Source: a virus. From it: DNA of 64,000 nt. The position numbers and the translations under genes were made by a program. Each line of letters starts with the position of its first letter. Position 1 is the first letter of the stretch. The stretch is from the UHGV virus genome UHGV-1374997. The stretch is one strand, 5' to 3'. Shown here in pieces: positions 1 through 31,001 of the stretch. The notes beneath the pieces are model-generated. The model was given only the letters and a program-made list of their open reading frames with translations, did not search any database and was not told where the DNA came from.

Positions 1-60
1 CTGTACCGTGCTCAAGCTGTACCGTGCTCAAGCTGTACCGTGCTCAAGCTGTACCATGCC
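1..60. repeat. 16-bp tandem direct repeat CTGTACCGTGCTCAAG, about 3.7 copies, truncated by the window edge
   Basis: Direct reading of positions 1-60; last copy degenerate (CTGTACCATGCC). Confidence 0.9.
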
Positions 61-205
61 TATGCACAAAGACGCCTTTCTCTACACCAACAGATACAAG
101 AATCCCTTTATAGCATATCCGATTGAATACACCAAAAGAACCCTTGCATCATGTGATACAAAGAAAAGATCAATAGGCGAGAGGATTTGTCCCTCTCGCC
201 TTTAA
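56..205 (+). CDS. hypothetical small protein (49 aa from ATG at 56)
   Basis: ORF track 8..205; no clear SD, begins inside the tandem repeat; weak. Confidence 0.2.
   Translation: MPMHKDAFLYTNRYKNPFIAYPIEYTKRTLASCDTKKRSIGERICPSRL
176..204. terminator. hairpin GGCGAGAGG-N7-CCTCTCGCC followed by TTT, between convergent ORFs
   Basis: Inverted repeat seen in sequence. Confidence 0.45.
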
Positions 206-214
206 CTATCTGAA

Positions 215-937
215 TTAATGCATTTTAAACAAAATATGCGGCTTTTCCATGCAAAGCGTGCACTCATCCCCGCAGTGAACCGGGGCATAGCCTTCCCTAC
301 CGTACGGGCATATATGATAGCCAAATATTTGACTTTTCTCCTGAATATAGGCTTCATCCCCAAAGTTGATAGATCCATCCGGCAACACAGACTCAACCAT
401 GTTGACGTTGGGAAGCGCCACAAATTCCGAAAAGTCAAAGATATTTGACACTTTCGTATAAAAATAGAAACGCTTTTCCGGGAATTTATCAGCTATCCGT
501 TTCCACATATTGACATACGCTTGTGAAACAAAATCTCCCGAGGAATGAATGCGCACAAAAGGACGTTCGGACTTTTTCAATGAATCCGATGTGATACGTT
601 CAAGACACGCAAGATCATTGAAGGCGAGATACGTATGGAAAAGCCGTTTGTTATAGGTTGGCGCATATTGCCGTTGCGCCTTCCGAGCATAACAGAACCC
701 CGCACAATCGGCGCAGTTCAAACACGTATCAACAGCAAGCAAGTCAAATATAAGAATATTTTTTTCGAGCTTAGAATTGCCCTTGGCAAAAGGATCTCCG
801 ATAAAAACGCCCAACCCATGAATATAGTTTTTTCTATCATTTGTTTTTTCATGATAAGAACGCATTCCCTTGCATTCTTTGATCATACGCAAGGTGTTGA
901 CAGGGGAGAACCGACGACCGAAAAATCCCTTTTCCAT
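215..937 (-). CDS. conserved phage protein with CX2CX2CX3C cysteine cluster (possible Fe-S/Zn site)
   Basis: 240-aa ORF; motif CLNCADCAGFCY; conserved early TIR AAGAGGTTTTATCATG upstream. Confidence 0.75.
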   Translation of the reverse strand: MEKGFFGRRFSPVNTLRMIKECKGMRSYHEKTNDRKNYIHGLGVFIGDPFAKGNSKLEKNILIFDLLAVDTCLNCADCAGFCYARKAQRQYAPTYNKRLFHTYLAFNDLACLERITSDSLKKSERPFVRIHSSGDFVSQAYVNMWKRIADKFPEKRFYFYTKVSNIFDFSEFVALPNVNMVESVLPDGSINFGDEAYIQEKSQIFGYHICPYGREGYAPVHCGDECTLCMEKPHILFKMH

Positions 938-990
938 GATAAAACCTCTTTTTTCAAAATTTAAAAGGTTATTGATAACGAGTCCAGTTT

Positions 991-1018
991 AAAACGGGAA
1001 ATAGAAATTTCCCGTTTT
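991..1018. terminator. hairpin AAAACGGGAAAT-AGAA-ATTTCCCGTTTT
   Basis: Perfect 12-bp inverted repeat downstream of the minus-strand gene 1030..1308. Confidence 0.45.
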
Positions 1019-1029
1019 ATTAGAATCCG

Positions 1030-1308
1030 TTATATACCGTCAAGCATGGAATCAAGAGCCTCAAGCGCGTCGTCGCGCTCATGGCACGCCGCGTCAAAGT
1101 CTCTTTCTACTTCCCTCAGTTCCGCACGAATCATTGCGGCACGGTCCTTTACACCCTCTACCTTTGCAAGACAGTTTTTATATACGGTATATGCCTCTAC
1201 CACAGCCTTAATTTTTTGAATAGCAAAATCGTTGCTAAAGTTGCCCTTAGCGCAATCCCTCATAACGCCGTCTATGTGCGACATAACAATCTCAGAAGAA
1301 CTTTTCAT
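1030..1308 (-). CDS. hypothetical protein
   Basis: 92-aa ORF in co-oriented early gene block. Confidence 0.55.
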   Translation of the reverse strand: MKSSSEIVMSHIDGVMRDCAKGNFSNDFAIQKIKAVVEAYTVYKNCLAKVEGVKDRAAMIRAELREVERDFDAACHERDDALEALDSMLDGI

Positions 1309-1325
1309 ATTCGCGACCTACCTTT

Positions 1326-1592
1326 TTAATACCAGTCCGGGAAAATGGGCTCGTTTTCGACAAAAACAAAGATACTGTGCCGGCCGTCCCATTGCGCTAC
1401 GTAGCAATCGCACATAGTTTTCCAGCCACGGGGGAGACCCTTAGCTCGGCTAATCTTTACGCTAGTCAAGCCTACGCAAGAGTTACCTTCCACACGATCG
1501 CAAGCATTGACAATATCACCGCCCTTAAACTCCGCAGGAATATCACCCTCAACGCGAAAAACAACGCCGTCCTTCAAATCTTTAATAAACAT
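1326..1592 (-). CDS. hypothetical protein (start refined to MFIKDL...)
   Basis: ORF 1326..1670; conserved TIR AAAAGAGGTTACTATAATG places start at 1592. Confidence 0.6.
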   Translation of the reverse strand: MFIKDLKDGVVFRVEGDIPAEFKGGDIVNACDRVEGNSCVGLTSVKISRAKGLPRGWKTMCDCYVAQWDGRHSIFVFVENEPIFPDWY

Positions 1593-1646
1593 TATAGTAA
1601 CCTCTTTTTTAGTGTTCAAGAAATATTCCCCGTTGCCAACAAAGAC

Positions 1647-1675
1647 ACAATACAGAAATAACGAAACCACGTCAA
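1647..1675 (-). promoter_or_regulatory. early promoter TTGACG-N17-TATTGT (minus strand), embedded in 14-bp inverted repeat 1664-1712
   Basis: Reverse complement read directly; spacing 17. Confidence 0.45.
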
Positions 1676-1748
1676 TACTTTTTCATGTAGAAAATCATAT
1701 TGACGTGGTTTCGTAATTGAATAATTGATTTACTTATTGAAAATTGAA

Positions 1749-2732
1749 TTAATCCACAAGGTTATAAGGGATTGTATCCCCGTCATTCGCTTTAAACAGG
1801 GTAGCCTTGCTGGTTGTGATATAATACTGCGGATATGCAATACCATTTGTCACTTGAATCTTTTTCCTTATAAAATTCTTGGGATTATATCCGCCGTTTC
1901 TCTTTGCCCCTTCCCTGATATAAGCTATATCGCTTGCATTCATCCCTTTAATTTTTCCCGTCCCGGAAAAAGGATTTTCAGGATCTGGCTGGTACGGTAT
2001 TTGTTTCATGATAGTGCACTTCCCAGAGTCCGAAAATCCAACTATCTGGAAAATATGGGGAATTGTCATATTGTAACCCCATGATCCCGCGAAAATGTCG
2101 CCTACGCGTAGATCAGGAAGAACGTCATCAAGACTAGGAACCGTTTCTATATCACTGAATTTATATATAGATTCTACCTTATGCCCATAGTAAACGTCTG
2201 CAATATCCTTAGCGATCTCCTTTTTGCGCTTTTCAAAATACGCTCCAACACCTTGCTTTATCTCGTATTTCATAGCAAGATCAAGAATATCATACAAAAC
2301 ATCAATTGCCCCGGCCTCTTGGCAATTCGGGCATTCGATGTTCAGGAACGGCAAAAGAGGAGCAATCCAGTCATCAAGACAAGCGTCCCCGTCCATGTCG
2401 ATCAGAAAAGTCAAGCGATTCATAAGCTTGTCGGACACGGCTTTTGCCCCTGCCTCATCCCAGAACGCAAAATCAAGAATATCTACAAAAGACACCTTTT
2501 CACTCTTTCGAGTATCATAGCTAAAAACGGTATAGGTTTCCCTATCGTCGCTTGCCTTCTTCACGACGCAAGCACGGTGCAAGTAATAGACAGGGGACCC
2601 GTGCTCAAGAAGAAAATTAACATCCGCATAAACACCACGAAAAAGAAAATCGGCCCCTTTTTCTGTGATCATGCGGTTGTAAAAATCCCGGACGTAAGAC
2701 TTAGGGGCCTTGACGGATACGTAGCTTCTCAT
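1749..2732 (-). CDS. hypothetical protein (327 aa)
   Basis: Long ORF with conserved TIR AAAGAGGTTATCAAAATG. Confidence 0.8.
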   Translation of the reverse strand: MRSYVSVKAPKSYVRDFYNRMITEKGADFLFRGVYADVNFLLEHGSPVYYLHRACVVKKASDDRETYTVFSYDTRKSEKVSFVDILDFAFWDEAGAKAVSDKLMNRLTFLIDMDGDACLDDWIAPLLPFLNIECPNCQEAGAIDVLYDILDLAMKYEIKQGVGAYFEKRKKEIAKDIADVYYGHKVESIYKFSDIETVPSLDDVLPDLRVGDIFAGSWGYNMTIPHIFQIVGFSDSGKCTIMKQIPYQPDPENPFSGTGKIKGMNASDIAYIREGAKRNGGYNPKNFIRKKIQVTNGIAYPQYYITTSKATLFKANDGDTIPYNLVD

Positions 2733-2778
2733 TTTGATAACCTCTTTAAATTTAACAGGATATGAAAAGAATTTTTAG

Positions 2779-3162
2779 TTAGATCCCGTGATACTTGCAA
2801 GCGTTCAAGTACCAGTTCAGAAAGTACTTTTCTTGTACCGTGGGAGGCGTGATCATGTCAAGAAATTTTTTAGGGCAAGCGTAATCAAAAGGCCCCATTT
2901 CCAGCGGGATAAATTTTGTCGTAACTTCTCGCAAGCTACTGTAAAAGCTTTTCTTTGCTGTAGCCTTTACCACGATGCCGCGAACTTCCCCTTTTTCGCA
3001 GTATGCTACGAAAATAGTAGATAAGGCGCAGTTGGATACATAAAGAACCTTGCTTCCACTCATTTGAAATGAGATATCAGCTTTTACGGCCTTAGCTCTG
3101 GTATCCGCTACGATGTTCGATACTGTCCAGCCCATGATAAAACCTCTTTCGTTAAAACTCAT
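2779..3162 (-). CDS. hypothetical protein (127 aa)
   Basis: ORF plus conserved TIR GAAAGAGGTTTTATCATG. Confidence 0.7.
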   Translation of the reverse strand: MSFNERGFIMGWTVSNIVADTRAKAVKADISFQMSGSKVLYVSNCALSTIFVAYCEKGEVRGIVVKATAKKSFYSSLREVTTKFIPLEMGPFDYACPKKFLDMITPPTVQEKYFLNWYLNACKYHGI

Positions 3163-3189
3163 TTTTGAAAAGTTCCTGCATCATTCTAA

Positions 3190-3222
3190 AGAAGGGTATA
3201 TACCCTTCTTTTATCAGAGTCA
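3190..3222 (-). promoter_or_regulatory. putative promoter TTGACT-N17-TATACC overlapping 18-bp perfect palindrome GAAGGGTATATACCCTTC (3190-3207)
   Basis: Read from sequence; -10 weak, palindrome operator-like. Confidence 0.4.
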
Positions 3223-3232
3223 AGAGCTTTTT

Positions 3233-3550
3233 TTAATAATTCTGAATCACGACGCCACCGTTTTTAAGCGGGATAACAATAGTGTGCTCTTGAAGAAGGC
3301 TAATGATATCTTCGGTTTCCATGCCGTCAATATCAAGGAACATATCCTCAGCGCAATCCTGCGGGCTATCATATTCCGTAAAAGAGCAACAGATAGCGAT
3401 AACATCCAGTTCCACCAGTTCCCCAGTTTCATCCTCAAGTTCTTCAAAGAATTCAAACAGGGCTTCAAGAGCGGCAGGGGAAAATTGATCATTGCGCCCG
3501 TGGTCGTCAAAGGCTTCCATGAAGTCGGAAAGATAAATGCGCTTGTGCAT
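3233..3550 (-). CDS. small highly acidic protein (D/E-rich), candidate DNA mimic / anti-restriction-like
   Basis: 105-aa ORF, strongly acidic composition; conserved TIR AAAGAGGTTATTACCATG; family not recognised with certainty. Confidence 0.65.
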   Translation of the reverse strand: MHKRIYLSDFMEAFDDHGRNDQFSPAALEALFEFFEELEDETGELVELDVIAICCSFTEYDSPQDCAEDMFLDIDGMETEDIISLLQEHTIVIPLKNGGVVIQNY

Positions 3551-3596
3551 GGTAATAACCTCTTTATGTGGTTAAAGTGTCGTTGTGTTGAAATTG

Positions 3597-3625
3597 ACCC
3601 TAAACTAAAAAGGGCTTACTGTCAA
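3597..3625 (-). promoter_or_regulatory. early promoter TTGACA-N17-TAGGGT (minus strand)
   Basis: rc of 3597-3625; same architecture as neighbouring early promoters. Confidence 0.4.
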
Positions 3626-4015
3626 GAGAAGTTTTTTACCTGCTTCACGTTGCCCTACAGAAACTATGACCTTGATTGCGGCGGCGGCCTGTCCTACGGC
3701 ACGAGCTTCAACGTCAAGCCAAGATTCGTGTGAGTTAGGTTCAAGTTCCCCGCCGCGTTTCTTGTGAAGCTCGGAAGGCGTGCAAAGCCGTTCGGCTATG
3801 TCAACATCATAGACAAGCCCACATCCGCCATAGGACCATTCCTGCCATGATCCCGCGCCATTAAGAAGCGTTCCACGGCAATTTTCAGGAGTAAGATCCT
3901 GATAATCCGGGATAGCCTCCAGCAGGTCCATAGCATAGCTCCGTACGCCCCTGCGCCATGCGGAGCGTTCGGCGGGAAGGGATTCAATAACCTTTCGAAT
4001 GTCAATAACTTTCAT
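3605..4015 (-). CDS. hypothetical protein (136 aa)
   Basis: ORF plus conserved TIR AAAGAGGTTATCACCATG. Confidence 0.7.
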   Translation of the reverse strand: MKVIDIRKVIESLPAERSAWRRGVRSYAMDLLEAIPDYQDLTPENCRGTLLNGAGSWQEWSYGGCGLVYDVDIAERLCTPSELHKKRGGELEPNSHESWLDVEARAVGQAAAAIKVIVSVGQREAGKKLLLTVSPF

Positions 4016-4036
4016 GGTGATAACCTCTTTGTTGTT

Positions 4037-4065
4037 TCGTTGAAATCAATCTACCGATTTTCTAT
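4037..4065 (-). promoter_or_regulatory. early promoter TTGACA-N17-TAGATT (minus strand)
   Basis: rc of 4037-4065 gives TTGACAgaaaaatagaaaatcggTAGATT. Confidence 0.55.
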
Positions 4066-4249
4066 TTTTCTGTCAACAAAAAATTCTGATTTTTTAGAAA
4101 AAGATTCTAGCGAAAAAAGGGGAGATCACTATGGCAGTAAAGGCGACCGTGAGCACGACACGAGATAGAGCTACGCTTGCGTTACGCTTGAAAGATAGCT
4201 TGCTTATGGCAGATCCTTTATACATGGTAGCCCCTTTTTTCCGCGTGAT

Positions 4250-4579
4250 TTACAGATAGGAGACAGCGTTGTGAAGGGCAGCAAAAGCTACGCACGGCAA
4301 CGCCATGAATCCGCACATATGAATAACGCTGTTCAGGAAGCCAAGGAAATTCGTATTTTCGGACACTCCGATAATACGCCGCATGACTTCCGAAATACTT
4401 TTTCCGGAAATTCCCCTAAGTCCTCCGCCGCCTACTACAACATAAACGCGGGACTTGACGCCTACGCGACGCGATTCAATGCGAACGCCTGTCCTTTTCA
4501 GGGTAAAATTCGCAAAAGAGAGGGACTTAGAGCAAAAAGGAGCGGAAAGGTAAATACGGCAAGCGGTCGTGAGCTTCAT
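4250..4579 (-). CDS. hypothetical protein (109 aa); antisense plus-strand ORFs with SD also exist here
   Basis: Conserved early TIR AAAGAGGTTATTAAAATG and own promoter favour the minus strand; protein low-complexity (GGGG run). Confidence 0.5.
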   Translation of the reverse strand: MKLTTACRIYLSAPFCSKSLSFANFTLKRTGVRIESRRVGVKSRVYVVVGGGGLRGISGKSISEVMRRIIGVSENTNFLGFLNSVIHMCGFMALPCVAFAALHNAVSYL

Positions 4580-4621
4580 TTTAATAACCTCTTTTTGTGG
4601 TTTGTGTGAACCCGTAAGATC

Positions 4622-4650
4622 AATCTATCCTTGCGGGCTCACACTGTCAA
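4622..4650 (-). promoter_or_regulatory. early promoter TTGACA-N17-TAGATT (minus strand)
   Basis: rc of 4622-4650 gives TTGACAgtgtgagcccgcaaggaTAGATT. Confidence 0.55.
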
Positions 4651-4710
4651 GCGATTTTTAGATATTTTTTTTTTGGATTATCCCTTGTACCCCTACCCCC
4701 GCCCAAAAAC

Positions 4711-4806
4711 TTTAGCTCAGGTCAATATCCCCGCGTCGCTTGAAAATGTTAGCTCAGGTCAATATCCCCGCGTCGCTTGAAAATTTTAGCTCAGGTCAAT
4801 ATCCCC
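4711..4806. repeat. 37-bp tandem direct repeat TTAGCTCAGGTCAATATCCCCGCGTCGCTTGAAAAT(G/T), 2.6 copies
   Basis: Direct reading; copies differ only at the junction base; third copy truncated. Confidence 0.9.
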
Positions 4807-4824
4807 ACCACGTGGAAACCGCTA

Positions 4825-5973
4825 TTATTTTTGAAGAATAAAAGAAACTCTTTCAAGTCTGCACTGGTTCTTTCCTTTGTAGTCGTCATGAGCCTTGACT
4901 TTCGCCTTTTTGATAGTGTACGTGCCGCCTTCTTCTACATCGGGGAAGGTAGAGGTCTTCCAGACGAAAGGAACGCCCGCGCTTGACTTCATGATAAAGA
5001 TGTGCTGTTCGCCGTACATGCCTTCAAAAGTGAATATCTTTTCAATGGTGACTTCCTCGTTAGCAACAATCGTGCCAATGGCGGGAAATTCTACGGTGAT
5101 TTTTTCTTCCGTCTTTTCTTCCAGCTTCTTAGTGTCAGAAGCCTTGCGGATATCAGCAAGAGCGCCGCGAATGCCCGCCGCGATAAAGCCGAACACGCGC
5201 TTTTCGCAGCGGCCCGAGCTTATGATCCGGAAAACATTTTCCTGATAGTCTCCCCTACGTTCTGAATTTTTAATAAATTCAATAGCTTTAAGAGCTTGTT
5301 CGGTATGCTCCGCCGTAACTGTGAAGTCGTAATCACGGGGAAAAGAGCGGTAATGATCGTCGACAAAATCCATGATCTTAGCTGCCGTGCTTCCCGGAGT
5401 GTTAGATTTAACGAAACCGAAGTCCGAGATCATCTTAACAGCTATTGCGCAGATCTCCACAGTAGCATAGTGAGGATCGCTTGCATAATGACCGCCATTG
5501 TCAGAATCCCCAAGAATTCCGGAATTTTCCGCGAAAAATTCGAGCGCGCCCGCTTCCTTTCCCAGAAAATCGATAATGCAAGACGTTCCCACCTGAATAA
5601 TCTTTCCGGCGGCGTCGGAAAGCAGGATGGTCTTAGAACGCTTCCTTTTCGTCCCGCAGTGATCGCAGGTCTTGCGGTCGGCAAAAGGAGTCAGATCAAC
5701 GTCTTCCGTAAAGGCGGGGTTACGGAAGATAAGGCCGCCGCTCGCATGGTCGACCACGGCGGCGAAAGTATAACCGGGAATCGCGGGGTATACGCCGTCT
5801 ACATGAAACTCCACAAAATCCTCATATTCGTAAGTGCCCTTTGTCCTTACGGAAAATTCACGTTCGACCGTGATAGAGAAAGCAGGATCCAATCCGCGCT
5901 TTTCGGCGCGGCGGTTCAGGCTTTCGACCTTTTCGACTATCTTGGAGAAAGTTGACTTGTGGCGGATAGGCAT
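4825..5973 (-). CDS. hypothetical protein (382 aa) with CDHCG zinc-finger-like motif
   Basis: Long ORF with conserved TIR TAAGAGGTTATCACTATG. Confidence 0.8.
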   Translation of the reverse strand: MPIRHKSTFSKIVEKVESLNRRAEKRGLDPAFSITVEREFSVRTKGTYEYEDFVEFHVDGVYPAIPGYTFAAVVDHASGGLIFRNPAFTEDVDLTPFADRKTCDHCGTKRKRSKTILLSDAAGKIIQVGTSCIIDFLGKEAGALEFFAENSGILGDSDNGGHYASDPHYATVEICAIAVKMISDFGFVKSNTPGSTAAKIMDFVDDHYRSFPRDYDFTVTAEHTEQALKAIEFIKNSERRGDYQENVFRIISSGRCEKRVFGFIAAGIRGALADIRKASDTKKLEEKTEEKITVEFPAIGTIVANEEVTIEKIFTFEGMYGEQHIFIMKSSAGVPFVWKTSTFPDVEEGGTYTIKKAKVKAHDDYKGKNQCRLERVSFILQK

Positions 5974-5995
5974 AGTGATAACCTCTTATAGTAAG

Positions 5996-6068
5996 ACATT
6001 CCTAGATTCCGATAAACCTTTTCCCTTGCCGTTGAAAAGACTTTATCGGAATCTAGGAATGTCGTCAA
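5996..6068 (-). promoter_or_regulatory. promoter TTGACG-N17-TAAAGT overlapping a 21-bp perfect inverted repeat (5996-6016 / 6042-6062)
   Basis: ACATTCCTAGATTCCGATAAA ... TTTATCGGAATCTAGGAATGT read directly; operator-like. Confidence 0.5.
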
Positions 6069-6083
6069 CAACTTTTTTGATTG

Positions 6084-6458
6084 TTATCTCCGATATTCCA
6101 TGCAGACAACGGGATCTGTCTCAACCGTCTCGAATCCCTCACTAGCGTAAAAGTCAACAAGATCTTCAAGGCTCATGCCATCGAAATCGGGAACCGCCGC
6201 AATCTTCAAGGGAAGGTGCGGAAACTTCCTCTTTACATAAGCTATCGCGGCTCGGAGCAAGACTCTGCCGTGTCCCTTGCGGCGATACTCAGGCCTTACA
6301 TGAAGATCAGAAACAAGTACGATATCCTGTTCTTCATAGCCATATAATGTGCTAGGGGCATCAATAATCTCTACCTCTTGAGAAATCATGCAATGACCAT
6401 ATTCCGACTCAAACACGATATCCCGTCCAGTATGCCCGGTCACAGTGATCTTACTCAT
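6084..6458 (-). CDS. GNAT family N-acetyltransferase
   Basis: Acetyl-CoA-binding motif RRKGHGRVLLRAAIAYV; SD GGAGGG upstream of MSKITV start. Confidence 0.8.
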   Translation of the reverse strand: MSKITVTGHTGRDIVFESEYGHCMISQEVEIIDAPSTLYGYEEQDIVLVSDLHVRPEYRRKGHGRVLLRAAIAYVKRKFPHLPLKIAAVPDFDGMSLEDLVDFYASEGFETVETDPVVCMEYRR

Positions 6459-6490
6459 AAAAATTCCCTCCATGCGATTCGTTTAAAGAG

Positions 6491-6519
6491 ACTCTATGCA
6501 AATACTAAATCACTGTCAA
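6491..6519 (-). promoter_or_regulatory. early promoter TTGACA-N17-TAGAGT (minus strand) for the GNAT gene
   Basis: rc of 6491-6519. Confidence 0.5.
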
Positions 6520-6630
6520 GCGGATCTATGAAAGAATCGAAAAGAAAAAATATTCGTGCATTCATATATTATATAAGGTATTGCAATTACCATGCCATAA
6601 TATTGGGATAGCTATTCTACGATGATCCCA

Positions 6631-6750
6631 AGTCAATGACACCTGATGACCATCAATGACAGTAGTTGACTGTAGATGACGATTACTGACGATCGTTGAC
6701 AGTCTGTGACGCTTGTTGACGGCTGTTTACGGTCGTTGACGACCGTGCAC
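6631..6750. repeat. 12 consecutive 10-bp units of form NNNNNNTGAC (11 of 12 end in TGAC/TTAC), exact 10-bp phasing
   Basis: agtcaaTGAC acctgaTGAC catcaaTGAC agtagtTGAC tgtagaTGAC gattacTGAC gatcgtTGAC agtctgTGAC gcttgtTGAC ggctgtTTAC ggtcgtTGAC gaccgtGCAC. Confidence 0.9.
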
Positions 6751-7010
6751 GGGGATTTTCAACGATTGTTCAAGAAATAACTATTAATATAATCAACTAC
6801 TTATAACTTGGCATAAGTCTTGCATAGATTGAGATTGGTTTGAGATTCTCCAATCATTTCAAGTATATGGGAGGGGGTAGGATCAAAGTGTACCGCATTC
6901 CGGTATATAGTACCGTCGTTGACTCAAAAAAACATTTTTTTCGATTTCTGAGCTTTTATCCGGTTGTAATTATTCATGTAAATTTTTTAAACGAAATTTT
7001 AATAAAACTA

Positions 7011-7039
7011 TTGACAAAAAATCGTTTATGGATTAAGAT
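7011..7039 (+). promoter_or_regulatory. promoter TTGACA-N17-TAAGAT upstream of terS
   Basis: Read directly; followed by SD AAGGAG and a TTG start. Confidence 0.55.
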
Positions 7040-7074
7040 TTTTACTAAATTTAATATAAAAAAGGAGAAAAACA

Positions 7075-7545
7075 TTGCGACGCCAAACAAAATCCATCGA
7101 AGCGCATAAGCAAGATGGTACATACAATTCTACGAAGCATGGAGTGGACGTTCCATTGGCGGAAGGACCGCTGAGGAAAATCAATTGGGACAAGATGTCC
7201 TCGGAAGACATTTATACTACGATTGCTGATGTTATCGCGCAGAAGGGACTTGACCATGCTGAATACTCTCTAGCTTTGGAACTCTTAGTTTATGCGGTGA
7301 ATAGGATGCTTAAACTCCGCAGGGATCTGAAAGCCCAAGGCGGCGAGACGTATATTACCCCGACAGGTATTCGGAAAAACAATCCTACAGCGAAACTTGT
7401 TATGGAAGCAGAGAAGCAAGTTGATACGCTCCTGCAAAGGTTTGGGCTTACGCCGGATTCTCGTAGCCGAGTAGCTAGGAAGAAGGGGGAACTTAATCTA
7501 GGGAGTGAAGATTCTTTCGGATCTCCGGAAGGTTTCTTCAATTAA
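7075..7545 (+). CDS. terS: phage terminase small subunit, P27 family
   Basis: 156 aa; C-terminal GLTPDSRSRV motif typical of P27-family TerS; TTG start with SD. Confidence 0.7.
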   Translation: MRRQTKSIEAHKQDGTYNSTKHGVDVPLAEGPLRKINWDKMSSEDIYTTIADVIAQKGLDHAEYSLALELLVYAVNRMLKLRRDLKAQGGETYITPTGIRKNNPTAKLVMEAEKQVDTLLQRFGLTPDSRSRVARKKGELNLGSEDSFGSPEGFFN

Positions 7546-7577
7546 ACCAATAATTTAAAAATATTTTAAAAAAGTAG

Positions 7578-7606
7578 TTGACAAATCAAAAAAGTTTCAC
7601 TATATT
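7578..7606 (+). promoter_or_regulatory. strong promoter TTGACA-N17-TATATT
   Basis: Read directly at 7578-7583 and 7601-7606. Confidence 0.6.
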
Positions 7607-7612
7607 CCTTTT

Positions 7613-7867
7613 CACGATGAGCGCATGAGCAGATGCAGACAGCATATTAAAGTTAAATACTATGATTATTTAAAACGGCATCTAGTTAAAACTCATACAC
7701 CGCTCATAATCATTTAGGTGCTTACAGCGACAAAAATTACACTTGCCTGTTAAGCAATAATGTAAAAGCACCTAGTTATTTAGATAAAGGTTCTCACAGC
7801 AACAACACAACCATTCATACTGGAAGTAGCGTCCACCAAAGGGCGCAGAACCTTGGAGAAAAAAATC
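7613..7867 (+). promoter_or_regulatory. about 255-nt structured 5' leader (nested helices 7618-7623/7701-7706, 7716-7723/7766-7773, 7788-7794/7847-7853 abutting the SD)
   Basis: Complementary segments identified by eye; function unknown. Confidence 0.35.
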
Positions 7868-17219: not shown

Positions 17220-17735
17220 TTAGACCAAATCATTCAGATAGTCTTCGGTAGTCAGGATAACGTTCTTTAATTGATTTTTCTTATAATCTTGCAGGGCTAC
17301 GTAAGCAAGAAGCAGGGCATCAGAACGATTGTGGTGTTTCTTTAAATGAAGAGGGGCGTCAGGGAACATCTCTCGGGCCATCGGGAGCGACGGTTTGTCT
17401 TTCTTGTCGATTTTGACGAGATTAAGCTCGCGTTGCCAGTACTGAGGAGGGACAAGAGAATACGGAATTTCGAGCGTCCGCAGGATACCTTGCCAAGTCC
17501 CAAAATTCTCTCCGAAGGAAAACGTGGAAACTACTCCCTGTTTCGGCATGGCGTGGACTTTCTCAATGTAGGCGTGATTGACGTGTTTATTGAACTTACG
17601 AAGAAATGAGATTGGGTGATTCGTAAAATCGCAGATTGAACAAAATGATCCATCGTCAGAGATTATAGCTACGGCACCAGTTTTTCCGGGGTCGATGCCG
17701 ATGAAATACGGTTTATCGAATTTTGATTTAGCCAT
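17220..17735 (-). CDS. RuvC-like Holliday junction resolvase
   Basis: N-terminal YFIGIDPGKTGAVAIIS motif. Confidence 0.7.
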   Translation of the reverse strand: MAKSKFDKPYFIGIDPGKTGAVAIISDDGSFCSICDFTNHPISFLRKFNKHVNHAYIEKVHAMPKQGVVSTFSFGENFGTWQGILRTLEIPYSLVPPQYWQRELNLVKIDKKDKPSLPMAREMFPDAPLHLKKHHNRSDALLLAYVALQDYKKNQLKNVILTTEDYLNDLV

Positions 17736-21207: not shown

Positions 21208-22434
21208 CTATTTATTTCTAGGCTTTACGATATGCACTTTTTCTTTTGCCCGAGTAATCGACGTATACATCCAGTGCTTTCTGTTTTGAATATCGTTTTT
21301 TCTCATTTCATCATCAAATATAATAACGTAAGGCCATTCGCTTCCTTGAGATGCGTGTGCGGTAATTGCATAGGCAAAGTCGACGACGATAGACCCCCAC
21401 TTCGGCTTATTGCTTTCAGGAAGTTCAAATGCCGCCCGAAGAAGGGAATCATTCACTTTTATAGTGTGATGCGTGTCTCCATCTTCCTTATAGTCAAAAT
21501 ATAAAGTAATTTTATTTTGACTTTCGTGAGATCCTACAACACTTCCGATATCTCCATTGACCAATATCAGCTTATTATATTTTTTTGAAACAGATTCCCG
21601 GATATTCTGCTTGACGATTATTTTATCGCCAACAACCGGAAATACCTGATTTTTTTCTTCACGAAGCCAACGATTGAGCTTCATTCTGGTAGAGTTCTGG
21701 CCCGTAATGACCTGATCCGCGATAGTATACTCTTCTTTAGGCAACCCATAGGAGAATCCTATTCCTTCGTTTTTCCAATATTCCCATCCTTGGAAGCCTC
21801 CCATACGAATTTCCGTGGCTAGACGAGTAATCGGGGATTCCAATGCGGCACGATGCACCTCCGACAGGAACGCATCGAAATCCGAGGGATTGGAAGGAAG
21901 GACTTGAGCGGATTTTACAGGTTGCAGTTGGAAAGGGTCCCCAACAAGAATGAGTTTCTTGCAGATCTGTTTCAGGGCCTTAAACTCTTTATACCCCAAC
22001 ATGGAGGATTCGTCAATGACAACAACCCTCGAAAAGAGTTCCGGGCACGGAGAATATGTGAACTCTATGCCTAAATTATTTTTTGCCTCCAGCAAATACG
22101 TGTATCTTACGATGTCTTGGTCTTCACCGGACTCATCAGCTATTTTTCTTGCTTCCTCCAGTTCTTCATCGCTGATTTCTCTAACGGAATAGAGCGCAGA
22201 ATGCACCGTCTTTATGAGCGTCCCCGCTGGCATTTTTCGAGAAAGTACTTGACAGGCTTTTCCCGTAGGAGCGAGCATGATCAATTCATCTTTATAGTAT
22301 TCAGCCAAGGCGTAAAGCAGCGTAGTCTTGCCTGTACCCGCACAGCCCCCTAGCATAAAGGGCTCCCAATCCTTTTTATGCCGAATGATTTTTTCAATTG
22401 CCTCATTTTGATGAGGAGTTAGGATGACTCCCAT
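21208..22434 (-). CDS. SF1 DNA helicase, Dda/RecD-like
   Basis: GGCAGTGKTT, LAPTGKA, DESSM, GDPFQLQPV, YAITAHASQGSEW. Confidence 0.85.
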   Translation of the reverse strand: MGVILTPHQNEAIEKIIRHKKDWEPFMLGGCAGTGKTTLLYALAEYYKDELIMLAPTGKACQVLSRKMPAGTLIKTVHSALYSVREISDEELEEARKIADESGEDQDIVRYTYLLEAKNNLGIEFTYSPCPELFSRVVVIDESSMLGYKEFKALKQICKKLILVGDPFQLQPVKSAQVLPSNPSDFDAFLSEVHRAALESPITRLATEIRMGGFQGWEYWKNEGIGFSYGLPKEEYTIADQVITGQNSTRMKLNRWLREEKNQVFPVVGDKIIVKQNIRESVSKKYNKLILVNGDIGSVVGSHESQNKITLYFDYKEDGDTHHTIKVNDSLLRAAFELPESNKPKWGSIVVDFAYAITAHASQGSEWPYVIIFDDEMRKNDIQNRKHWMYTSITRAKEKVHIVKPRNK

Positions 22435-22554
22435 GTATAAAACCTCCTTTGAAAAAAAAATACTTTGAAAAACATCCTATTTAAAACACACAAAATCCGA
22501 AATACCCAAGAATGATAGATCGGATTTTGTGGGGAGTCAATAGAAAAATTTAAG

Positions 22555-27370: not shown

Positions 27371-28633
27371 TTGGGAAAACATAGCAGGATAGGAGCTTCT
27401 TCCTCAGAAAGATGGATGGCGTGTCCCGCTTCCGTCAGGATGAGCGTTGGGCTCAAAAACGAAGGCAGCCCCGCAGCAAAAGAGGGCACGGCGGCCCATG
27501 CTCTCGCAGAGTTCTGCCTTAAAAATGAGATGTATCCCGCATGTAAGAAAGGAAAAAAGATCTACGTAAAGGGAGATTCCTTTGAGATAGAAGAAGAGAT
27601 GATAAAAAGCGTCTCTCTTTACGTAGGTCACATTCTTTACGTAGTTCATAATCAAAAATTGTGGATGGACGAGAATGGCGACCTTGTTCAAATCGACACC
27701 GAAAATGCCCATTTTGAAAAGTTTGAGAAAGGGGATAGCAAGAAGCTGTCCGTCGAGGAAAAATTCGCTCTTACTTGGATAAAGGAAGGGATGTTCGGTA
27801 CATGCGACTGTAATTACAAAGATTATAAGAATAGGAGACTATATGTATTCGACCTAAAATATGGAAAGAGCACGCCAGTAACAGCCGTTGACAATTCTCA
27901 AATGAAATACTACGCTTTGGGTATTGTAGGAGAGCCATTATCGAATGACGACTTTGATGAAGTAGTAATGGTTATTGTCCAGCCGAGAAACGATTGTTTT
28001 GGAGTAAGTTCGTATAGTCTAAAGATCGATGATCTCTATCTCTGGGCTGAAACGGAGTTACGCCCTGCGGCAGAAAAGACAGAAGATCCTGATGCCGAAT
28101 TTTCATCAGGAGATCATTGTAAATGGTGCCCGGCCTTTGGAGTTTGTCCTCAGATCGAAAAAGATCTTGGATATTTAGTAAATTATAACAATTATATAGA
28201 AGAAAAGAAAAAAAATATTGAACTTCCAGACCCAAGACACTTGACAAGTGAAGAAAAGTCTCGTATATTGCATCTATCGATTGTGTACGCACCTTGGATC
28301 GAAGCGGTGGCAAAATCAGCTTATGAAGACGCTGTCGCGGGAAGATTAGTTCCGGGGTTTAAGCTAGTTAAAAAAAGAAAATCGAGACGAGTTTGGAGGG
28401 ACAATGCGCTCACCGCCCAAGAGCTAAGTTTGAAGTATGGAGATGAAATTTTTGAGGAGAGAAAGTTAAAATCGCCTTCTAAATTAGAAGGTATTTTGAC
28501 AGGAGAGGAAATTGATCTCTACTCATTTAGACCGGAATCCGGTACGGAATTAAAACCAGAAAACGATAAACGTAAATCCGTAAATCCATTAACATCTATC
28601 GACGAATTTTATTCGCAACAAGAGGAAAACTAA
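27371..28633 (+). CDS. PD-(D/E)XK nuclease, DUF2800 / Cas4-like exonuclease with C-terminal Cys cluster
   Basis: N-terminal SSSERWMACPAS, C-terminal CKWCPAFGVCP; typical DUF2800-DUF2815-PolA synteny. Confidence 0.7.
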   Translation: MGKHSRIGASSSERWMACPASVRMSVGLKNEGSPAAKEGTAAHALAEFCLKNEMYPACKKGKKIYVKGDSFEIEEEMIKSVSLYVGHILYVVHNQKLWMDENGDLVQIDTENAHFEKFEKGDSKKLSVEEKFALTWIKEGMFGTCDCNYKDYKNRRLYVFDLKYGKSTPVTAVDNSQMKYYALGIVGEPLSNDDFDEVVMVIVQPRNDCFGVSSYSLKIDDLYLWAETELRPAAEKTEDPDAEFSSGDHCKWCPAFGVCPQIEKDLGYLVNYNNYIEEKKKNIELPDPRHLTSEEKSRILHLSIVYAPWIEAVAKSAYEDAVAGRLVPGFKLVKKRKSRRVWRDNALTAQELSLKYGDEIFEERKLKSPSKLEGILTGEEIDLYSFRPESGTELKPENDKRKSVNPLTSIDEFYSQQEEN

Positions 28634-28634
28634 A

Positions 28635-29294
28635 ATGGCAAGAGTTACTAAGCGCGTTATTTTCAAGGCTTCTATTTCTTATCCTCATCTTTCTGCGCCC
28701 GTAGTCAATCCCAATGATAAGAACAAAGACCCCCAGTATAGCATTGAAGCGCGCATTCCCAAGAGCGACGTAGACACGATTAAGAAAGTGCGCTCCGTGC
28801 TTGAGGAAGTTTATACCGAGGGTGCTGGCCCGGATAAGAAGAAGTGGAAAGTTGATTTTCGTGAGCCCGGCTTTTTTGATACGTATCTGTCGAAGCAAGG
28901 CAAGGATGGTTTCCCTCTTCGAGACGGCAAGTATAAGCCGAGCGGCGATTGCGACGATATTGTTTTCATGAGCGTCAAAAACAAGTATCCTATTGCTCTG
29001 GGCGTAAAGACTGGCCCCACGACTTATCGGAAGCTCGAATCGAAAGAAGAAATCGAAAAGGAACTTTACGCTGGTTGTATCGCCGATGTCATCATGGACG
29101 TTTACTATAATGACAGGCCCGGCACTGAACCCGGATGCTTCCTTTCCCTCAAGGGTGTCGTAAAGACTGGTGAAGGACAGCGTCTTGCCGGAAGCTCTCC
29201 CGTCGACCTTGGCGAACTCTATGGCACCGAAGAAAATAACGATGTAACCTACGGTGGCTCGGAAGATTCTTCCTCCGATGATTTGCCGTTCTAA
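28635..29294 (+). CDS. DUF2815 phage ssDNA-binding protein
   Basis: Position between DUF2800 and PolA; acidic C-terminal tail DDLPF. Confidence 0.65.
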   Translation: MARVTKRVIFKASISYPHLSAPVVNPNDKNKDPQYSIEARIPKSDVDTIKKVRSVLEEVYTEGAGPDKKKWKVDFREPGFFDTYLSKQGKDGFPLRDGKYKPSGDCDDIVFMSVKNKYPIALGVKTGPTTYRKLESKEEIEKELYAGCIADVIMDVYYNDRPGTEPGCFLSLKGVVKTGEGQRLAGSSPVDLGELYGTEENNDVTYGGSEDSSSDDLPF

Positions 29295-29951: not shown

Positions 29952-31001
29952 ATGTCTATTCTCAAGTCCAAAGTTTCCGTTATCCGTTTTATCACCGAAG
30001 TTGAAGATAATCTTGAAACTATCATCAATGGGCTTAACGCCGCACGTTTTCAGGAGAAGTGGGAAGCCGGGATGGATTCCATGCAAGGCTTCTGTCCTCT
30101 TAACGACCGTTGGGGCTGCTCTGATTTCCACGAAGGCAACATCAAGGCGAATGGGTTTATTGCATTCTTTTTCCGTACTGACACTAAGCGGGTAGATCCC
30201 AATCTTCTCAAGCGTGAAATTTCTGACCGGATTGAGCGTTTCTCTGAAACTCATGGAAAGAAGCCCAACCGTGAAGAACGTAAGGACATTCAGGTCACTG
30301 TGAAGAACAAATTGCTCAATGAAGAAAAAGCCAAGCCTTCTTTCTATCCGGTCATGTTTAATCCCGAGACGGGGGAAGGGTATCTTTTCGCTACTTCCAA
30401 TAGTGTCTTTGAGAAGTTCCGGGCATCGTTCAAGTTGGTTGCCGGGATTCCGAATGTCAAGAATCTCGAAGAAATCGTGGAATCCAGAAACCTTGATTTT
30501 ATGGTCTATAGCCAGACGTTCCTGACGTGGTTCTGGTGGCGCATGGAGAATGATCCCACCAAACCTGTCACTACCGAGAATACTTCCTACGAATGCTCCA
30601 TGAGCGGCATTGTAACGGTAAGTTCGGCGGAAACCGGGGAAAAGGTCACGGAGAAGTCGGATCAGCTTCATGAGGCTCGTATGGCCCTTCTGCGGGGTCT
30701 TCGTGCGGAAAAGGCGGCGGTTACTTGCTGCGCTGGTTCTGGTGTCAATATTGAGTTTACTTTGGATAATGAAAGCCTCAATATTTCCGGGCTCCCTATT
30801 CCTAAGATGGAAGAAAAGCCGAGCGACGTGTTTGAAGAATTTGAACATGCGAAGATTCATATTGATGAAGCTTTTGCTCTTATTGATTCTTTGATGGAGG
30901 AATATATTGAGCTTAATGCAGTAGGCGACCCGCTGCCTCCTACGCCGCTTATTCATTGGGGCCGTGGAGATTTTTGTTCCGGAAGCATTGAAATTCTGTA
31001 A
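29952..31001 (+). CDS. RdgC-like recombination-associated protein
   Basis: Recalled similarity to RdgC; 349 aa. Confidence 0.55.
   Translation: MSILKSKVSVIRFITEVEDNLETIINGLNAARFQEKWEAGMDSMQGFCPLNDRWGCSDFHEGNIKANGFIAFFFRTDTKRVDPNLLKREISDRIERFSETHGKKPNREERKDIQVTVKNKLLNEEKAKPSFYPVMFNPETGEGYLFATSNSVFEKFRASFKLVAGIPNVKNLEEIVESRNLDFMVYSQTFLTWFWWRMENDPTKPVTTENTSYECSMSGIVTVSSAETGEKVTEKSDQLHEARMALLRGLRAEKAAVTCCAGSGVNIEFTLDNESLNISGLPIPKMEEKPSDVFEEFEHAKIHIDEAFALIDSLMEEYIELNAVGDPLPPTPLIHWGRGDFCSGSIEIL

Follow-up and report, generated by a model that had tools for sequence, protein, structure and literature searches.

Probable composite linkers of promoter, stem-loop and ribosome-binding site in a variable gene block of an HK97-capsid phage unrelated to T4

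The window, i.e., the whole 64-kb (64,000-nt) stretch of DNA analysed, is a phage genome with Phage_portal and Phage_capsid (HK97-family) Pfam matches, DNA_pol_A and a long ORF of tape-measure size. Positions 215-6519 on the minus strand are a variable accessory-gene block, probably early, of this uncultured tailed phage. No Pfam function was found for the variable-region ORFs (ORFans) in front of which the elements described below sit. The features are listed here in leftward order, all promoters being predicted ones, followed by the motif-linked starts and the phage's recombination genes.

6491-6519, minus strand: GNAT promoter-like site, TTGACA-N17-TAGAGT; first leftward unit of the block, conserved in relatives
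6084-6458, minus strand: GNAT acetyltransferase gene (Pfam PF13508/PF00583); SD GGAGGG, not the shared motif
6040-6068, minus strand: alpha promoter, TTGACG-N17-TAAAGT, then CTTTTCAACGG
5995-6016/6042-6063, minus strand: alpha hairpin, perfect 22-nt inverted repeat
5971-5987, minus strand: RBS block and ATG of cassette A, AAGAGGTTATCACT; crossover site
4825-5973, minus strand: cassette A, 382 aa, phrog_2319
4706-4816, minus strand: tandem repeat, 37 nt x2.6, between the A stop and the beta promoter
4622-4650, minus strand: beta promoter, TTGACA-N17-TAGATT; before B here, before cassette I in relatives
4604-4618/4630-4644, minus strand: beta hairpin, 15-nt imperfect inverted repeat GTGTGAGCCCGCAAG / CTTACGGGTTCACAC bracketing the beta -10
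4577-4593, minus strand: RBS block and ATG of B, AAGAGGTTATTAAA; junction of the I-cassette absence
4250-4579, minus strand: gene B, 109 aa
4094-4225, minus strand: gene b2, 43 aa, different SD
4048-4076, minus strand: C promoter, TTGACA-N17-TAGATT plus GATTTCAAC
3605-4029, minus strand: gene C with RBS block (4013-4029), 136 aa
3597-3625, minus strand: D promoter, TTGACA-N17-TAGGGT plus CAATTTCAAC
3233-3564, minus strand: gene D with RBS block (3548-3564), 105 aa
3191-3208, minus strand: D/E palindrome, perfect 18-nt GAAGGGTATATACCCTTC, then TTT
2779-3148, minus strand: gene E with RBS block, AAGAGGTTTTATC, ATG at 3135; 118 aa
1749-2746, minus strand: gene F with RBS block (2730-2746), 327 aa
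1657-1677/1698-1718, minus strand: G hairpin, 21-nt arms, after F, T-rich run behind
1647-1675, minus strand: G promoter, TTGACG-N17-TATTGT
1326-1606, minus strand: gene G with RBS block (1590-1606), 88 aa
1030-1308, minus strand: gene X, 92 aa, translationally coupled to G; different SD
991-1018, minus strand: terminator-like hairpin before H, AAAACGGGAAAT..ATTTCCCGTTTT, fold z -4.7
215-950, minus strand: gene H with RBS block (938-950), AAGAGGTTTTATC; 240 aa, Pfam GP88; final motif-bearing gene of the block
175-201: terminator-like hairpin past gene H
5973, 4579, 4015, 3550, 3135, 2732, 1592 and 937, minus strand: motif-linked gene starts, AAGAGGTT before the ATG
17220-17735: Holliday-junction resolvase
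27371-28633 and 29952-31001: exonucleases
28635-29294: Gp2.5-like SSB/annealing protein

The window has 10 copies of the motif AAGAGGTT where 2.7 would be expected, and eight of them lie 5-6 nt before the ATG of consecutive minus-strand genes (span 943-5987). The original prediction was that all eight starts share a longer degenerate motif. AAGAGGTT was indeed found at 8/8 genes, but the degenerate pattern, AAGAGGTTWTYAHHATG, matched exactly at five of them (5973, 4579, 4015, 3550, 2732) and, allowing one mismatch, at 1592, which makes 6 matches against 0.07 expected; the starts at 937 and 3135 have AAGAGGTTTTATCATG, which is 1 nt shorter and hence falls outside the pattern as written. Position 3162, given there as a gene start, is just the first in-frame ATG of gene E, whose motif-linked start is 3135. 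The conservation itself stood up to permutation: an identical 8-mer is present in 8/8 early genes, the commonest 8-mer is present in 5/47 other window genes, and 0/20000 random 8-gene subsets were as uniform as the early set, i.e., none reached eight genes sharing one 8-mer (maximum 5). The remaining window genes have varied AAGGAG-type SD sites. The AAGGAGG of late genes is a better anti-SD match than the early-gene motif. The GAGGT core of the motif pairs with the anti-SD in the usual way and stands at the usual distance from the ATG, and conservation reaches TT(A/T)T, past this core. The motif is found in a single contiguous class of genes only, and 16/16 relatives have kept it; among these the bases between RBS block and ATG vary freely. 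Repeated blocks of 9-19 nt recur in direct orientation every 0.4-1.4 kb; direct-repeat families D1, D3, D4 (AAAAAA..TCTTGACA) and D6 span the RBS block, the upstream leader and the A-tract/-35.

The promoter pattern TTGACR-N17-TADRDT has 11 matches in the window, against 0.48 expected, clustered at 3.6-9.7 kb. Five lie on the minus strand at 3597-6519, and 1647-1675 (TTGACG..TATTGT) is a sixth promoter-like site. Predicted TTGAC(A/G)-N17-TAnnnT promoters stand behind A-tracts in five or six motif-gene units, with A5-A10 runs 3-10 nt upstream of the -35 at 6/7 sites. A weak promoter-like site, TTGACT-N17-TATACC, is found at the D/E boundary, where the palindrome at 3191-3208 overlaps it. The view of the block as a set of autonomous cassettes holds for GNAT, A, B(+b2), C, D and G, each with its own consensus promoter, but not for E, F, X and H, for which no convincing promoter of their own was found; F has 46 nt of upstream intergenic DNA. 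Partly against autonomy, the relatives' variable cassettes K, L, M and I2 would be co-transcribed, and have other SDs. A promoter placed earlier at 4037-4065 lies at 4048-4076, and the sequence thought to follow several promoters was overstated, since exact GATTTCAAC stands behind the 4048-4076 promoter only. The shorter TTTCAAC stands behind three promoters (3597, 4048, 6040), and this 7-mer is not enriched.

Stable hairpins mark four unit boundaries, with compensatory changes in relatives at two of them. Stem-loops are linked to promoters at 4/7 elements (alpha, beta, the E palindrome and G), and none was found at the C, D and GNAT promoters. The two palindromes predicted to overlap promoters are real, but their coordinates needed correction (the palindrome by 1 nt; the repeat is of 22 nt, not 21); the beta and G hairpins had been overlooked. 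The alpha hairpin has its 5' arm in the promoter spacer and -10 and its 3' arm in the leader, its RNA folds at -47.7 kcal/mol (z -7.2), and in relatives it is 99% paired with three compensatory pairs. The beta hairpin (z -4.2) has a G.U position that is G-C or A-U in relatives, and the D/E palindrome stays perfect through an A/T to G/C double change in L008, L009, L022 and L024. The G hairpin (z -6.6; four haplotypes, all paired) overlaps the -35 of the 1647-1675 promoter, and since its 3' arm contains that -35, terminator and promoter are one composite. In the covariation analysis of the G and alpha hairpins, each was 99% paired with three doubly changed pairs; 0/500 shuffles reached the score, and slid controls gave 22-48%. 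At 991-1018, relatives have unrelated G/C hairpins within the same flanks. U-runs behind the hairpins before G and H, and partly behind that before E, make these terminator-like; the alpha and beta hairpins lack a U-run and so are not canonical terminators. The compensatory changes show that the palindromes are conserved nucleic-acid hairpins at unit boundaries, and because the sequence differs in each they are not a common operator.

Sixteen related metagenomic genomes were compared with the window (17 in all). The suggestion of cassette shuffling was supported, in that whole genes have been gained, lost or exchanged, with junctions inside RBS or -10/start blocks. Present/absent units are cassettes A, I+I2 and D and the A+I pair. 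Cassette A, to which the 37-nt tandem repeat belongs, is found in 6/17 genomes (truncated in L009, which has also lost the repeat), two contigs not covering the slot. The slot between GNAT and B is either empty or filled by varying combinations of K, L, M, A and I+I2. L004 lacks gene D and has a fusion, within the RBS block, of the D leader to the E ORF; a cassette N, only in L005, is inserted at the -10 of the D promoter. In L004, L005 and L008, the C spacer/-10/leader segment has been replaced by a different one (leader versions TTGACAG and AAAGAGGTTATCACC). For G, all four combinations of leader variants and ORF alleles occur; leaders and ORF alleles reassort across the RBS block.

These junctions are in register within AAGAGGTTAT-type RBS blocks (9-18 nt) or the -10/start block GATAAAGTCTTTTCAACGG (18-19 nt), the latter being the alpha promoter block and a crossover site in relatives. 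The I+I2 absence (window and L009) has the 12-nt crossover interval AAAAGAGGTTAT, with about 710 nt removed; the D absence in L004 has AAAGAGGTT, with 417 nt removed; the A+I absence in L007/L026 has GATAAAGTCTTTTCAACGG, 19 nt, with 1945 nt removed; and for L021/L028 compared with L003 the crossover interval is 18 nt, with 736 nt removed. For the A absence of the L003 type, AAGAGGTTATACGTCATG (18 nt) is common to the alpha-A and beta-I junctions. In an unbiased test, breakpoints were enriched near blocks relative to all positions (P 1e-4 to 7e-3), but not relative to an intergenic-only null (P about 0.9), so that selection for intact genes alone could put many junctions near signals. The K/L/M insertions, between the GNAT stop and an A-tract, are not block-mediated, and deletions within A (L009), within E (L006) and in L029 have 3-8-nt microhomology or none. 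Because the relatives share ancestry, the block-mediated events that can be counted as independent are about five to eight, rather than dozens.

We think it likely that composite promoter/stem-loop/RBS linkers both drive early expression and serve as short-homology recombination sites. The signals reused are an A-tract; a host sigma70-type promoter, TTGAC(A/G)-N17-TA(G/A)(A/G)(T/G)T, in many cases with (C/T)TTTCAAC behind it; a long hairpin on or beside the promoter, present in some units only; and the uniform (A)AAGAGGTT(A/T)T 5-6 nt before the ATG. From the sequence we infer the early timing of the block, promoter use, transcription termination and RNA processing. Host RNA polymerase would initiate at each promoter, and the hairpins would lie where the preceding unit ends; the ones ahead of G and H, and in part that ahead of E, look like terminators. 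Since the 5' arms of the alpha and beta hairpins lie within the promoter spacer, these two would fold only in RNA read through from upstream (or in single-stranded DNA); their probable effect is attenuation, processing or stabilisation of that RNA, and thereby insulation of the units. The uniform RBS would give all units the same initiation signal. On the comparative evidence, the blocks of 9-19 nt that recur in direct orientation every 0.4-1.4 kb act as short-homology crossover sites, and every exchange product retains a complete promoter-leader-RBS-ORF unit. These exchanges are probably carried out by enzymes that the phage itself encodes, namely the Gp2.5-like single-strand annealing protein, the exonucleases and the resolvase. 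Recurrent exchange would in addition keep the blocks alike, and so account for a conservation that goes past what an SD requires.

It is rather unlikely that these are just ordinary strong early promoters with a favoured SD, selected for expression, whose repeats have no role in recombination, and that junctions fall at gene boundaries because gene-breaking illegitimate recombinants get lost. The normal GAGGT complementarity and spacing, the intergenic-only null and the insertion of K, L and M without a repeated block all fit that account. It does less well with 8/8 identical 8-mers, against at most 5/47 elsewhere, although AAGGAGG pairs better with the anti-SD, and with at least four whole-cassette differences whose two ends fall in register within one and the same 9-19-nt repeat; for random end-joining of two ~70-100-nt spacers, such register is estimated at about 1 in thousands per event. 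Further, the gene-destroying deletions in L009, L006 and L029 survive, so selection has not purged every out-of-register product. Operators of a dimeric repressor shutting off the early promoters are a disfavoured and very improbable reading of the inverted repeats, which do overlap the -35, spacer or -10 at four promoter-like sites, but are unrelated in sequence (arms 15-22 nt, loops 2-25 nt), change in both arms so as to keep pairing and not a recognition sequence, and are missing from the C and D promoters.

Conservation of TT(A/T)T past GAGGT, in a single contiguous gene class and in 16/16 relatives, would also be consistent with AAGAGGTT(A/T)T being the target of a trans-acting factor that co-regulates translation of the class, such as a phage translational repressor or activator like T4 RegA, or a small RNA, with cassette exchange a by-product. 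There is a precedent in the Start-Associated Sequences (SAS) of Cluster K mycobacteriophages, for which such a factor has been proposed (PMC3203893). We consider this quite unlikely, given that no candidate regulator was found, that an Rfam search of the leaders gave no family match, and that relatives vary freely between block and ATG; it is compatible with the linker explanation, not exclusive of it. Equally doubtful is a bolder proposal that AAGAGGTT(A/T)T and the hairpin-embedded promoters form a dedicated gene-capture and control platform. There a phage factor would recognise the block, either the annealing/recombination machinery or a translational regulator specific to the class; units running from RBS to RBS would be cut out as mini-circles, each with its promoter, and exchanged among co-infecting phages, in analogy to an integron but free of integrase; and the hairpins would be DNA- or RNA-level switches tying promoter activity to upstream read-through.

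The linker explanation has a close parallel in the PeSLs (promoter-early stem-loops) of T4-like myoviruses (Arbiol et al. 2010, PMC2839356; Comeau et al. 2014, PMC4122927). A PeSL consists of an AT-rich tract, a sigma70 promoter, a stem-loop within, overlapping or adjoining the -35/-10, and SD plus ATG; PeSLs are repeated before small ORFans in a hyperplastic region, crossovers of ORFan indels lie between -10 and SD/ATG, and the proposed role is that of a homologous-recombination linker keeping each unit expressed (PMC2839356). The match is feature by feature: composite element, repetition before ORFans, ORFan indels and proposed linker role (PMC2839356). The intergenic elements here have a sequence-predicted sigma70-consensus promoter, an AT-rich tract upstream of the -35, a stable stem-loop at the promoter (4/7 elements) and, at the 3' end, the SD and start codon of the next gene, and they lie in a hyperplastic ORFan region with indel crossovers inside elements, the intergenic-null test for these not being significant. 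The genome is not that of a T4-like myovirus, having an HK97-family capsid, DNA_pol_A and a Gp2.5-like protein. Further, the stems here are long, A/T-rich and all different, whereas PeSL stems are usually GGGG..CCCC, and unlike in PeSLs the sharpest shared block is the RBS itself. In PeSLs the promoter is strong, the stem-loop terminates or attenuates transcription and mini-circles form; the promoters and terminators here are predicted ones. Given the T4-unrelated genome and unique A/T-rich stems, the block works like a PeSL and is not a homologous member; by analogy, it may be called a functionally PeSL-type 'mobile regulatory cassette' in a phage unrelated to T4.

The host-takeover module of Bacillus phage SPO1 resembles this block in its dense small early genes, host-type promoters and strong similar RBSs; to our knowledge, cassette exchange has not been described at its promoters and RBSs. 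Integron cassettes have an attC site and a tyrosine-recombinase integrase. No integrase match was found among the ORFs scanned (a subset of window ORFs), and the repeats here are RBS/promoter blocks, not attC-like imperfect palindromes at cassette 3' ends. The moron and linker ideas for lambdoid phages are attributed to Hendrix/Juhala and Susskind-Botstein. Morons and linker-mediated modular evolution of lambdoid phages are discussed in PMC2839356. Both systems have independent promoter-gene-terminator units between genes and exchange at short conserved boundary sequences, but morons are not thought to move via their own regulatory sequences, whereas here the regulatory blocks are the junctions. 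The SAS/ESAS elements of Cluster K mycobacteriophages (Pope et al. 2011, PMC3203893) are also comparable: the SAS is asymmetric, includes the SD core, lies a few nt before the ATG, is conserved beyond 16S pairing and is found at a subset of non-structural genes in one orientation, often with inverted repeats just upstream. The SAS is a 13-bp GGGATAGGAGCCC 3-7 bp before the start, as against AAGAGGTT(A/T)T or AAGAGGTTAT here, so the analogy is of position and gene-class restriction only, and no link of SAS to cassette junctions was found in the passages of PMC3203893 consulted. The 17-bp ESAS repeats have a common consensus and no co-variation, and hence were interpreted as protein sites, whereas the repeats here are all different and show compensatory changes.

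Cassette exchange at shared signals had already been described for T4-like phages, and here it is found in an unrelated HK97-capsid phage. This suggests that 'mobile regulatory cassettes' are not confined to T4-like phages: the same design is found in an unrelated lineage of gut or anaerobe phages, whose natural variants document the exchange directly. With eight identical RBS blocks, three interchangeable leaders, co-varying hairpins and natural recombinants, the locus is a compact test system that bears on the minimum homology length usable by phage annealing proteins, and on whether regulatory repeats stay uniform through selection for expression or through recombination itself. The motif also flags swap sites of accessory, possibly host-takeover or anti-defence, genes, and for annotation it marks the true starts of these ORFans, e.g., 3135 rather than 3162.

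The leftward, probably early block of the window runs from 6519 down to 215 and holds the genes listed here; apart from GNAT and H, none was given a function by Pfam.

6084-6458, minus: GNAT, acetyltransferase
4825-5973, minus: A, 382 aa, phrog_2319
4250-4579, minus: B
4094-4225, minus: b2
3605-4015, minus: C
3233-3550, minus: D
2779-3135, minus: E
1749-2732, minus: F
1326-1592, minus: G
1030-1308, minus: X
215-937, minus: H, Pfam GP88

The original prediction held that genes of this block share an initiation context conserved well beyond the Shine-Dalgarno (SD) sequence. A shared ribosome-binding sequence (the RBS block) lies just before the start codon of eight of these genes. Within the window, AAGAGGTT occurs 10 times against 2.7 expected, and eight of the copies are 5-6 nt ahead of an ATG, in the genes A, B, C, D, E, F, G and H. 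The 17-nt start pattern first proposed was found at five exact sites and at one with a single mismatch (6 versus 0.07 expected), but E and H carry a version one nt shorter, AAGAGGTTTTATCATG, and the start that goes with the motif is 3135, the proposed 3162 being another ATG further upstream in the same frame. By permutation test, conservation exceeded that of the SD consensus: one 8-mer was common to all eight early genes, the commonest 8-mer in the 47 other genes, AAAAGGAG, was present in five, and none of 20000 random 8-gene sets had more than five genes sharing one 8-mer. SD sites elsewhere in the genome are varied AAGGAG/GGAGG sequences, so the early-block RBS is more uniform than the SD consensus; it is also a weaker anti-SD match than the sites of the late genes. 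The motif-bearing class is limited to A through H, and genes past H in relatives use varied SDs again. Outside the block, only the SF1 helicase gene (21208-22434; observation at 22418-22437, minus), whose start follows AGGAGGTTTTATACATG, has a context resembling the E/H version.

Across genomes, RBS blocks have a column conservation of 0.957; codon position 2 reaches 0.939 and the remaining intergenic columns 0.885. This difference adds little among such close relatives, and what is informative is the identity of paralogous sites within one genome. A standard 16S tail (textbook sequence 3'-CUCCA-C-UAG-5') could pair with GAGGT-T-ATC, and extended anti-SD pairing was considered as the cause of the conserved TTAT(C). 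Relatives, however, freely replace the ATC (with TATTAAA, TATACGTC or TTCTACT), and extended pairing therefore fails to explain the invariant part. The TT(A/T)T extension might serve a trans-acting factor.

The promoter-like sequence TTGACR-N17-TADRDT was found 11 times in the window against 0.48 expected. Five of these matches are on the minus strand of the block and are listed here with a sixth promoter-like site:

6491-6519, minus: promoter-like match
6040-6068, minus: promoter-like match
4622-4650, minus: promoter-like match
4048-4076, minus: promoter-like match
3597-3625, minus: promoter-like match
1647-1675, minus: sixth promoter-like site, additional to the five matches

Promoter-like sites are present where the original prediction put them, except that the one placed at 4037-4065 was 11 nt off, the real site being 4048-4076, and that GATTTCAAC, said to follow several of them, is exact after 4048-4076 only. 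An A5-A10 tract (repeat family D4) is directly upstream of most of the promoter-like sites. TTTCAAC is found downstream of three promoters, and this 7-mer is not in itself enriched. A phased repeat of about 11-14 units of 10 bp occupies 6620-6780, within the 550 nt of divergent sequence that separate the leftward block from the promoters facing right (7011-7039 and 7578-7606). Its minus-strand reading is GTCAnnnnnn, and several plus-strand units are GTTGACGRY, thereby presenting TTGAC -35-like hexamers once per helical turn. The repeat is 92-94% conserved in relatives, with a length difference of roughly 90 nt in L008, and could be a set of origin iterons, a binding array for terminase or a regulator, or a sigma-factor decoy. 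Beside it, the first rightward ORF (7075-7545, plus) has a weak small-terminase-like PHROG match (phrog_83, E 3e-12). The scanned ORFs around the portal gene (41223-42551), a set without the small ORFs directly before it, included no large terminase.

Both palindromes noticed originally were confirmed, one as an 18-nt perfect palindrome at 3191-3208 and the other as a 22-nt perfect repeat at 5995-6016/6042-6063. Two further inverted repeats were found, one of 21 nt (1657-1677/1698-1718) that overlaps the G-promoter -35 and one of 15 nt, imperfect (4604-4618/4630-4644), around the -10 of the B promoter. RNA folding gave the following structures:

5995-6063: alpha hairpin, -47.7 kcal/mol, z -7.2
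1657-1718: G-boundary hairpin, z -6.6
991-1018: terminator-like hairpin before H, z -4.7
4604-4644: beta hairpin, z -4.2
3191-3208: E palindrome, 10-bp stem, z -2.3

Folding of the C, D and GNAT leaders was not unusual, and no Rfam family was found in the leaders. In relatives the G hairpin has four haplotypes, each perfectly paired, with changes among G-C, U-A and A-U at one position and among C-G, U-A and A-U at another; 99.1% of cells are paired, slid registers are 30-48% paired, and none of 500 shuffles reached the covariation score. In the alpha hairpin, three pairs are changed on both sides and pairing is 99%, its score also being reached by none of 500 shuffles, and the E palindrome is still perfect in four relatives in which A/T has become G/C on both sides. 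Palindromes overlapping promoters might be read as operators. That reading was rejected because the repeats are so diverse and their changes are compensatory; as each repeat has a sequence of its own, the repeats are selected nucleic-acid hairpins rather than copies of one operator. In each case the hairpin is at the end of the preceding unit. U-runs follow the G and H hairpins, and in part the E hairpin, as in intrinsic terminators. The alpha and beta hairpins have no U-run, and their 5' arm is inside the promoter spacer, so that a transcript from that promoter lacks the arm and the hairpin would form only in upstream read-through RNA or in single-stranded DNA. RNase III could plausibly act on a perfect 22-bp stem, and we infer that the alpha and beta hairpins may attenuate, process or stabilise upstream RNA.

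INPHARED phages gave no nucleotide match to window 1-8000 by blastn, leaving no annotated relative to lean on. Protein-guided scans yielded seven IMG/VR contigs and nine ENA metagenome contigs with about 80-95% nucleotide identity. Four IMG/VR contigs from other metagenomes (L013, L015, L017 and L020) matched the 17-mer TAAAGTCTTTTCAACGG without AAGAGGTTWT and were set aside as chance or unrelated. On the gene-order map of 17 genomes (the window and 16 relatives), B to H form a conserved backbone and the slot between GNAT and B is hypervariable. D is absent from L004 and decayed in four further genomes, and an extra gene, N, is present between C and D in L005 only.

Table. Contents of the GNAT-B slot; the contigs of L022, L027 and L029 do not cover the whole slot.
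A alone: window; L009, with an internally deleted A
I+I2 alone: L003
M, then I+I2: L006
K, then I+I2: L008, L024
A, then I+I2: L023
K or L, then A, then I+I2: L004, L005
Empty: L007, L021, L025, L026, L028

All of the variable cassettes are ORFans, and neither Pfam nor PHROGs gave a function for B, C, E, G, X, I, I2, K, L, M or N. K and L (L004 569-, L005 832-) are alternative insertions downstream of GNAT; they have an N-terminal ELxxxERNFL motif in common and may be divergent alleles of one gene. Between the A stop and the beta promoter is a 37-nt tandem repeat (4706-4816, 2.6 copies, 98% identity), which L009 has lost and which is shorter in other relatives.

The cassette shuffling suggested by the original prediction is supported by these genomes, in which several cassette junctions fall in register in the repeated blocks. 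Three leader types are interchangeable: alpha (promoter 6040-6068 with the 22-nt hairpin) stands before A or, in other genomes, before I; beta (promoter 4622-4650) stands before I or B; and gamma, absent from the window, stands before B. In three-way alignments, crossovers were located in register inside repeated blocks.

Table. Cassette junctions.
I+I2 absent (window, L009): crossover AAAAGAGGTTAT, 12 nt; 710-712 nt removed
D absent (L004): crossover AAAGAGGTT, D leader straight into TTATC-ATG of E; 417 nt removed
A+I absent (L007, L026): crossover GATAAAGTCTTTTCAACGG, 19 nt; 1945 nt removed
L021/L028 versus L003: 18 nt of the A+I-absence block, different gamma allele; 736 nt removed
A absent (L003 type): AAGAGGTTATACGTCATG, 18 nt, common to the L027 alpha-A and L023 beta-I junctions

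Ahead of C, the segment between TTGACAG and AAAGAGGTTATCACC has two unrelated versions with identical flanks. For G, two leader variants and two ORF alleles are present in all four combinations, so that a crossover must have taken place in the roughly 12 nt surrounding AAGAGGTT; H is similarly reassorted. N in L005 is flanked by two promoter -10 elements (TAGAG), and L007 is a triple mosaic, its upstream tract being beta, its core promoter alpha and its leader gamma.

An unbiased breakpoint test took the ends of blastn HSPs in five reference genomes; 6-9 of 19-32 breakpoint clusters were within 6 nt of a block, versus 8-10% of all positions (P 1e-4 to 7e-3). Because 35-52% of intergenic positions are this close to a block, there was no enrichment against an intergenic-only null (P about 0.9), and for this reason the test is not used as proof; the case rests on the in-register three-way junctions. 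By our own rough estimate, two spacers of 70-100 nt joined at random would meet in register within one repeat about once in thousands of products. In-register junctions account for at least four or five whole-cassette events, the independent events being few since the genomes share ancestry. The K, L and M insertions are without a block, lying after the GNAT stop and before the alpha promoter's A-tract, and L009, L006 and L029 have deletions inside ORFs that are not block-based (3-8-nt overlaps for L009).

The window encodes proteins of the kind found in T7-style toolkits, which work on short homologies:

28635-29294: Gp2.5-like SSB/annealing protein
27371-28633 and 29952-31001: two exonucleases
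17220-17735: Holliday-junction resolvase

In our model, direct repeats (9-19 nt) that recur at intervals of 0.4-1.4 kb could be annealed after resection or during replication, which would delete, duplicate or exchange the RBS-to-RBS (or promoter-to-promoter) unit between them. Since the last part of each such unit would be the next gene's promoter and leader, the product would always retain a complete expression signal, and a circularised excision product would set that promoter before its own ORF. The blocks would also become uniform through repeated exchange; this would account for an unchanged AAGAGGTT in eight genes, with drift in the bases that separate it from the ATG.

PeSLs of T4-like phages combine an AT-rich tract, a sigma70 promoter, a stem-loop (in one of five positions relative to -35/-10), an SD and an ATG; copies of the element stand ahead of ORFans in hyperplastic regions, and crossovers have been mapped between the -10 and the SD or ATG (PMC2839356, PMC4122927). 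Every sequence-level feature of PeSLs is found in the early block, although the phage lineage differs, the stems are A/T-rich, individually unique and co-varying, and the RBS block is sharp. Judged from its sequence, the region appears to work like a PeSL array, adding a further case of this known kind from an uncultured phage unrelated to the T4-like ones. For a motif tied to start codons and conserved past 16S pairing within a single gene class, the nearest precedent is the SAS/ESAS of Cluster K mycobacteriophages (PMC3203893), which differ from the early block in motif sequence and inverted-repeat behaviour. Cassette A (4825-5973, minus; phrog_2319) has full-length homologues, 28-30% identical in amino acids, in the T4-like Aeromonas phage Aeh1 and in many KVP40-like Vibrio phages, lineages for which PeSL or PeSL-like sequences are reported (PMC2839356, PMC4122927).

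The 64-kb window is part of an uncultured tailed phage, with Pfam matches to Phage_portal and Phage_capsid (HK97-family), a family A DNA polymerase, helicases, anaerobic NrdD and RtcB, and a tape-measure-sized ORF of 1366 aa. Its portal protein is at most 39% identical to that of any deposited phage and weakly resembles those of various gut phages. Among the tail genes is a TnpB/IS605 OrfB gene (55020-56195, plus; Pfam OrfB_IS605 and a Cas12f1-like TNB domain), the nearest genomic copies of which are in gut Desulfovibrionaceae MAGs (74-76% aa). TnpB is the only hint of a host, and the TnpB and portal similarities are too weak a signal to name one. At the very start of the window, 1-59, is a 16-nt tandem repeat (CTGTACCGTGCTCAAG x3.7); two IMG/VR contigs end there and others read through, so that it is probably an assembly break point. 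The six tRNA genes of the window, one called as tRNA-Phe with the unusual anticodon AAA, are accompanied by an RNA ligase and an RtcB ligase (9400-10744, 13258-14202 and 33481-34662), a set that looks like a tRNA-repair kit against host anticodon nucleases.
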